Assembly: GCF_003334315.1 (NCBI RefSeq)
Contig: NZ_QOWR01000074.1
DNA: 16,712 bases
Reading direction: 5' to 3' (one strand)
DNA from: Escherichia coli
GTDB taxonomy: Bacteria; Pseudomonadota; Gammaproteobacteria; Enterobacterales; Enterobacteriaceae
The notes below the pieces were generated by a model, which had not been told where the DNA came from, searched no databases, and was given only the letters and a program-made list of their open reading frames with translations. The position numbers and the translations under genes are program-made. Below are positions 5,882 through 6,227 of the stretch, one piece after another (within the stretch, counting starts at the first letter, position 1; every line of letters starts with the position of its first letter).

Positions 5882-5944
5882 GATGCCCTCCAATATGGTT
5901 ATTTTTTATTGTGAATTAAGATAGGTGAGTACGACGTAAAAAGA

Positions 5945-5960
5945 TGTGAAGCAAATCACA
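5945..5960. promoter_or_regulatory. CRP binding site in galP promoter region
   Basis: tgtgaagcaaatcaca is a perfect match to both half-sites of the CRP consensus TGTGA-N6-TCACA. It lies about 65-80 bp upstream of the galP start codon. Confidence 0.6.
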
Positions 5961-5963
5961 TCA

Positions 5964-5979
5964 GTGTAATCGCTTACAC
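5964..5979. promoter_or_regulatory. GalR/GalS operator in galP promoter region
   Basis: gtgtaatcgcttacac is a near-perfect 16-bp palindrome matching the gal operator consensus GTGnAAnCGnTTnCAC as I recall it. It is directly adjacent to the CRP site. Confidence 0.6.
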
Positions 5980-6227
5980 TAACATTTATCTTAGTTATGA
6001 TTTAAGTGCATGAAAATAATTGAGTTATATCATCATAGATTAAACGCTGTTATCTGCAATTAAGACTTTACTGAAAAGAAATGTAACAACTGTGAAAACC
6101 GAATAATAATATGAAAATATTACAAATCTTTGTCTGTTGTGGTTGGTGTAATCGGTTTCAGTTGTGATGATAATCTGCGGTGAAACGTGATCAGGAAGAA
6201 TGATGTTATTGTGCGGGCGGTTTTTTT

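Follow-up and report, generated by a model that had tools for sequence, protein, structure and literature searches.

The galP promoter region of Escherichia coli: a CRP site adjoining a GalR/GalS operator in the metK-galP spacer

Two short palindromes lie side by side in the spacer between metK and galP, in a 16,712-bp stretch of Escherichia coli DNA (the window). An earlier reading of the sequence (the original prediction) took them for a CRP (cAMP receptor protein) site and a GalR/GalS operator of the galP promoter, PgalP, and took the whole AT-rich spacer to be regulatory. Do the palindromes serve as binding sites for these proteins, and how much of the spacer belongs to galP? The best overall explanation is that galP has a class II CRP-dependent promoter with a GalR/GalS operator that blocks its activation (probability approximately 0.95). 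Both palindromes are already known: one has been mapped as the CRP activator site of this promoter and the other as its GalR/GalS repressor operator. The architecture of PgalP has reportedly been mapped by Weickert and Adhya in 1993, Semsey et al. in 2007, El Qaidi et al. in 2009 and Qian et al. in 2016. From sequence alone, the original prediction recovered the core of a well-studied promoter in which cAMP and galactose signals are joined as an AND gate. The result has little significance beyond annotation, where it splits the spacer into a galP control region and metK 3' elements.

The galP locus

The window is part of the E. coli chromosome: an 801-bp query has matches in 5426 of 5426 complete E. 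coli genomes, and the genes are metK and galP. According to the RefSeq annotation of identical DNA, both genes are on the minus strand of the window. The galP coding sequence (4487-5881, minus strand; RefSeq annotation of identical DNA and ORF list) encodes a galactose:H+ symporter. Its ATG is at 5881-5879 and is preceded by the Shine-Dalgarno sequence GGAGGG (5891-5886, minus strand). The metK-galP spacer is 100% identical to that of K-12 MG1655, and so published K-12 coordinates carry over directly (the galP ATG, at 5881 in the window, is at 3088284 in K-12). As this is the same DNA, no difference from the K-12 promoter is found: the printed operator, CRP and NagC sequences are all present at the corresponding coordinates.

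A 46-bp segment with both palindromes is single-copy and identical in 4968 of the 5426 E. coli genomes. The GTDB E. coli species representative (L003:1398-1450) differs from the window and K-12 by SNPs at operator position 7 and CRP position 6, such that its operator is fully palindromic (GTGTAATCGATTACAC) and is accompanied by TGTGACTTGCTTCACA. A megablast search with the 46-bp query missed 99 of the 5426 E. coli genomes, probably in part because of these SNPs.

CRP site and proximal operator

The CRP site has the 16-bp core TGTGATTTGCTTCACA on the galP strand (TGTGAAGCAAATCACA on the window strand) and is located at 5945-5960, 71 bp upstream of the galP ATG. It is identified by an exact match, by position weight matrix (PWM) and by a published ChIP-seq site. 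The 22-bp form of the site covers 5942-5963 (centre 5952.5). The pattern TGTGA-N6-TCACA occurs once in the window, compared with 0.01 occurrences expected from 200 dinucleotide-preserving shuffles. With a CRP PWM made from 106 other ChIP-seq-derived sites (galP left out), 5945-5960 scores 16.4 bits, the highest score in the window (training median: 13.1 bits; per-position p: ~9e-7). The description of this sequence as a perfect-consensus CRP site is correct for the two half-site pentamers, both of which are perfect in just 7 of the 106 other in vivo CRP sites. It does not extend to the 22-bp site, which agrees with the full consensus AAATGTGATCTAGATCACATTT at 15 of 22 positions. TGTGATTTGCTTCACA is the CRP ChIP-seq site for galP in ETEC H10407 (PMC4287617), a strain other than the source strain but with an identical site sequence. 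PgalP is silent without cAMP-CRP (PMC4073488).

The promoter-proximal GalR/GalS operator, GTGTAAGCGATTACAC on the galP strand (GTGTAATCGCTTACAC on the window strand), is located at 5964-5979 and is identified both by its consensus match and as a published operator. Its centre (5971.5) is 90.5 bp upstream of the galP ATG. The consensus GTGNAANCGNTTNCAC is found with no mismatches once in the window (0.00 occurrences expected by chance). The operator is a 16-bp hyphenated dyad (GTGNAANC.GNTTNCAC) that agrees with the published GalR consensus at each of its 12 specified positions, and the genetically critical positions 3, 5, 9 and 15 are intact (consensus and critical positions taken from PMC5110547). 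It is self-complementary at 14 of 16 positions. A GalR PWM made from 18 other ChIP-chip sites (galP left out) gives 5964-5979 a score of 16.8 bits. This is the top score in the window, yet it is below the training median of 19.5 bits because T at position 4 and T/G at position 7 are rare among the training sites. Both palindromes thus rank first in the window in the PWM scans that had been proposed as a check.

The operator is also well documented in vivo. GTGTAATCGCTTACAC is listed as a galP operator at K-12 3088186-3088201, where the GalR ChIP-chip peak is the strongest in the genome (115.4) and the information score is the highest (25.1 bits) (PMC5110547). Three promoters, including that of galP, are up-regulated by deletion of galR (PMC5110547), and the same operators are bound by GalR and GalS (PMC3119520). 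GalR binding inhibits CRP-mediated activation of PgalP, and both cAMP and galactose are required for expression in an AND logic (PMC4073488). One reporter study found an apparent activation of PgalP upon GalR/GalS titration, which clashes with simple repression (bioRxiv 10.1101/2021.11.16.468742). This activation may reflect the plasmid reporter context or missing NagC/CRP control.

Comparison with the mapped architecture, the other check that had been put forward, gives the same picture: the operator is the published K-12 galP operator, the CRP site is the galP ChIP-seq site, and the predicted arrangement of a CRP site directly adjoining a GalR/GalS operator agrees with published maps.

Promoter geometry

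Both sequences are found exactly where they were predicted, with a gap of 3 bp (tca, 5961-5963) between the CRP core and the operator. When the CRP site is taken at its 22-bp length (5942-5963), it abuts the 16-bp operator (5964-5979) with no spare base pair. The operator is upstream of the CRP site and the centre-to-centre distance is 19 bp (5971.5 - 5952.5).

The natural PgalP operators have published positions of -61.5 and -243.5 (bioRxiv 10.1101/2021.11.16.468742). In the window, the operators are centred at 5971.5 and 6153.5 (the latter described below), which would place the PgalP transcription start at 5910 (A, minus strand), an estimate that should be accurate to ~1 bp. With this start, the CRP site would be centred at -42.5, and the canonical class II position of -41.5 is 1 bp away. 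The putative core promoter (5910-5923, minus strand; published operator positions and sequence) includes the -10-like element TATCTT (5923-5918), 21 bp downstream of the CRP core. In a simple sigma-70 scan, no -35/-10 pair was found on the minus strand. A -35 element would be missing because the CRP site probably sits in its place, as is expected for a class II CRP-dependent promoter, and the negative scan is not evidence against a promoter here. The core promoter block is conserved across species.

Distal GalR/GalS operator and NagC operator

The architecture given in the original prediction is partial, as two further operators were missed. The distal GalR/GalS operator (CTGAAACCGATTACAC on the galP strand) is located at 6146-6161 and is identified by consensus, PWM and publication: CTGAAACCGATTACAC is listed as a galP operator at K-12 3088004-3088019 (PMC5110547). 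Its centre at 6153.5 (published -243.5) is 182 bp from that of the proximal operator. It has one mismatch to the consensus and the second-best GalR PWM score in the window (16.0 bits).

The NagC operator (CTTAATTCACAATAAAAAATAAC on the galP strand) is located at 5898-5920 with its centre at 5909 (~+2), where it covers the putative start and reaches into the -10 element from the downstream side. FITBAR Table 2 gives the identical 23-mer as a galP site, and galP is strongly repressed by NagC (PMC3098098). A NagC PWM made from 10 known sites gives 5898-5920 a score of 22.3 bits, which is the best in the window and falls among the scores of the training sites. In 2000 shuffles of 5882-6161, this score was never reached. 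The NagC operator ties galactose uptake to N-acetylglucosamine regulation.

Conservation in the Enterobacteriaceae

GalP-encoding loci were collected from 80 Enterobacteriaceae species representatives, 79 of which had enough upstream DNA for comparison. The proximal operator (≤2 mismatches, centre 90-96 bp from the ATG) is present in 74 of these 79 loci. In all 74, a CRP core is located at exactly +19 bp from the operator, with no mismatches in 36 loci, one in 35 and two in 3. The three loci with two mismatches (from Klebsiella and Raoultella) have the symmetric sequence CGTGA...TCACG. In an unconstrained best-match search, the 19-bp spacing is recovered in 59 of 79 loci. Conservation is concentrated in the positions expected to contact protein: mean column information is 1.91 bits for the specified GalR positions and 1.80 bits for the CRP pentamers, but 0.50 bits for the CRP N6 and 0.52 bits for the upstream flank. 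In 71 of 74 species, the CRP pentamers are kept in a fixed register while the N6 between them varies freely. In a 72-row alignment, no variation is seen in 11 of the 16 operator columns, and conservation is 90% or higher in a further 2. The distance of the distal operator upstream of the proximal one is 181-185 bp in 69 of 72 species loci. The rigid 19-bp CRP/GalR module and the distal spacing of ~182 bp are consistent with stereospecific protein-protein or protein-polymerase contacts.

The module is missing in 5 of the 79 species loci. In these loci (L052, L053, L054, L062 and L063, from Enterobacter spp., Silvania and Leclercia), the region upstream of the GalP gene differs; a GalR-like operator is found 69-70 or 130 bp from the ATG and is not followed by a CRP core at 19 bp. 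They may represent second copies or rearranged promoters.

Short palindromes do occur in intergenic DNA, and these two could be functionless products of chance in an AT-rich spacer. This explanation has a negligible probability: the expected numbers per window are 0.01 and 0.00, in vivo occupancy has been published, and in 74 species the contact bases are kept at the fixed 19-bp spacing while the non-contact bases vary freely.

The palindromes could also act as RNA hairpins, forming a back-up terminator or insulator against metK read-through instead of binding proteins. A terminator scan does flag the CRP palindrome with a T-run on the minus strand, and the 56-nt RNA folds as two adjacent hairpins (MFE: -16 kcal/mol, z = -3.15). 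The stem is weak, however (7 pairs, 3 of them GC), a strong metK terminator is already present upstream (6285-6261), and the palindromes are themselves upstream of the galP start. The alignment also argues against RNA pairing. The core pairs are invariant across the 72 sequences and so are uninformative on RNA structure, but pairing at the outer positions is lost in 23 to 41 of the 72, and the covariation of 0.067 is no better than that of controls slid by +1 to +3 (0.068 to 0.110). Operator position 7 varies (G/A/C/T) while its would-be partner at position 10 stays A, a signature of protein contacts and not of RNA pairing. No Rfam family has a match in the whole window. An intrinsic terminator or structured RNA at the palindromes was rejected on the basis of the weak stem, the broken outer pairs and the control-level covariation, and this function is very improbable.

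Proposed model for galP regulation

The proposed model for regulation of galP by these sites is as follows. cAMP-CRP would bind 5945-5960, near -42 in place of a -35 element, and would recruit and activate RNA polymerase in the class II manner. When galactose is absent, a GalR or GalS dimer would bind 5964-5979 (near -61), which faces the same side of the helix as the CRP site and has its centre 19 bp further upstream. By analogy with galE P1, the operator is predicted to occupy the place beside CRP where the polymerase alpha C-terminal domain (alpha-CTD) would dock, and bound GalR would therefore block CRP-dependent activation. Galactose would free the repressor, such that firing of the promoter would require both high cAMP and galactose. 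Repression would be tightened by the distal operator (6146-6161) and by the NagC operator over the start (5898-5920), and the two GalR operators may be joined by looping. The identity, positions, conservation and spacing of the sites, their in vivo occupancy by GalR and CRP, the need for CRP, the antagonism between GalR and CRP activation, and repression by NagC are established here or in the cited literature. The start site and the way in which GalR acts at galP draw on secondary statements in the literature and on the analogy with galE P1.

A different mechanism would be steric exclusion, in which GalR/GalS keeps CRP off the abutting site by competition, and does not share the promoter with CRP while blocking its interaction with polymerase. 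The contact between the 22-bp CRP site and the 16-bp operator, which leaves no base pair between them, is in keeping with exclusion. On the other hand, the spacing is identical at galE P1, where CRP is at -41.5 and the operator OE is at -60.5 (PMC4693257; PMC5110547) and where GalR at OE works through a contact with the alpha-CTD (PMC4693257). The invariant 19-bp register in 74 species suggests a stereospecific, same-face arrangement over simple overlap, and the wording used for PgalP in the literature favours co-occupancy (PMC4073488). Exclusion is thus rather unlikely, and co-occupancy, with GalR blocking activation by bound CRP, is the preferred mechanism.

Comparison with other GalR-regulated promoters

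Like galP, galETKM P1 has two operators, one of them centred 19 bp upstream of a CRP site, and its activation by CRP is antagonised by GalR; the CRP site is in the class II position at galETKM P1 and probably also at galP. The second operator is placed differently: that of galP is upstream, 182 bp away (-243.5), whereas that of galETKM (OI, +53.5) is inside the first gene, 113 bp away. The galETKM operon has an overlapping P2 promoter, and none is known at galP. Unlike galETKM P1, the galP promoter is fully CRP-dependent and has a NagC operator over its start. HU-dependent looping is documented for galE.

Control by cAMP-CRP and GalR/GalS is shared by the galS and mglB promoters, whose 16-bp operators have the same consensus, and the PgalS operator is also located at -61.5. 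The galS and mglB operators are weaker than the galP proximal operator, however (ChIP-chip: 9.5 to 10.9, versus 115.4; PMC5110547), and these promoters have no counterpart of the conserved galP block described below.

A conserved block between the GalR operators

A further block with the sequence TGTTACAT-N4-TTTCAG-N4-GTCTTAA (GTCTkAA across species) is located at 6058-6088 (minus strand), at approximately -178 to -148 and roughly midway between the two GalR operators. In an alignment of ~70 Enterobacteriaceae species, its conservation equals that of the known sites. A PWM made from 47 non-Escherichia sequences gives 6058-6088 a score of 39.8 bits, and scores elsewhere in the window and in the K-12 mglB/galS, galE and galR regulatory regions are at most 1.7 bits. 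The block was rejected as a NagC site, as it does not resemble one in the NagC PWM scan, and it is neither CRP-like nor GalR-like. A literal search of a library of papers did not find its sequence. Very tentatively, the block could be an undescribed galP-specific protein-binding or architectural site, such as the apex of a GalR-GalR or GalR-NagC loop, though this is doubtful; just as well, it could correspond to a site that El Qaidi et al. had already footprinted in 2009. While the CRP and GalR sites are textbook elements, this block is the only part of the region that might be new.

Extent of the galP control region

The spacer (5882-6304) has a GC content of 37%, compared with 52% for the whole window. 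"AT-rich" is an accurate description of the part between the two GalR operators (5980-6145, 26% GC), but not of the part nearest metK (6162-6304, 50% GC).

The spacer is non-coding, as had been predicted. No CDS is annotated in it in K-12 or in strain CP53. A 71-aa ORF (6040-6255, minus strand) is interrupted by in-frame stops in two other Escherichia species, one of them E. albertii, and only a 25-aa fragment of it aligns with another E. coli. In most genera, in-frame stops also interrupt a 79-aa ORF (6120-6359, minus strand). Its cross-species similarity is mainly in the first ~35 codons, and the initial ~19 of these overlap the metK 3' end. A protein-coding gene in the spacer was rejected on these grounds: the ORFs are broken or lose similarity even within Escherichia, and there is no annotated CDS.

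The prediction that the spacer is regulatory throughout stands for ~5882-6161 and is too broad for the remaining ~140 bp on the metK side. The stop codon of metK is at 6305-6307, and 6212-6285 (minus strand) contains a REP-type dispersed repeat (~6212-6260) and the metK intrinsic terminator (stem-loop at 6285-6261, then a T-run). The stem of the terminator is 10 bp long and includes 6 GC pairs (MFE: -18.3 kcal/mol, z = -3.1), and the REP-type repeat has a median copy number of 14 per E. coli genome, with a maximum of 27. The CRP site and operator alone do not establish all of 5882-6304 as regulatory. The segment 6212-6285 belongs to the metK 3' end, outside galP control, and marks the boundary of the control region. 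The 423-bp spacer can be divided into a galP control region at about 5882-6161 and non-coding metK 3' elements, with no known regulatory role, at about 6162-6304.

CRP-type sites in the tktA-cmtB intergenic region

Two CRP-type sites are also present within 14605-14664, in the tktA-cmtB intergenic region of the window. The first (14605-14620) is the cmtB site of the ETEC CRP ChIP-seq table, and the second (14649-14664) scores 13.2 bits. A weak NagC-like 23-mer is located between them at 14621-14643.
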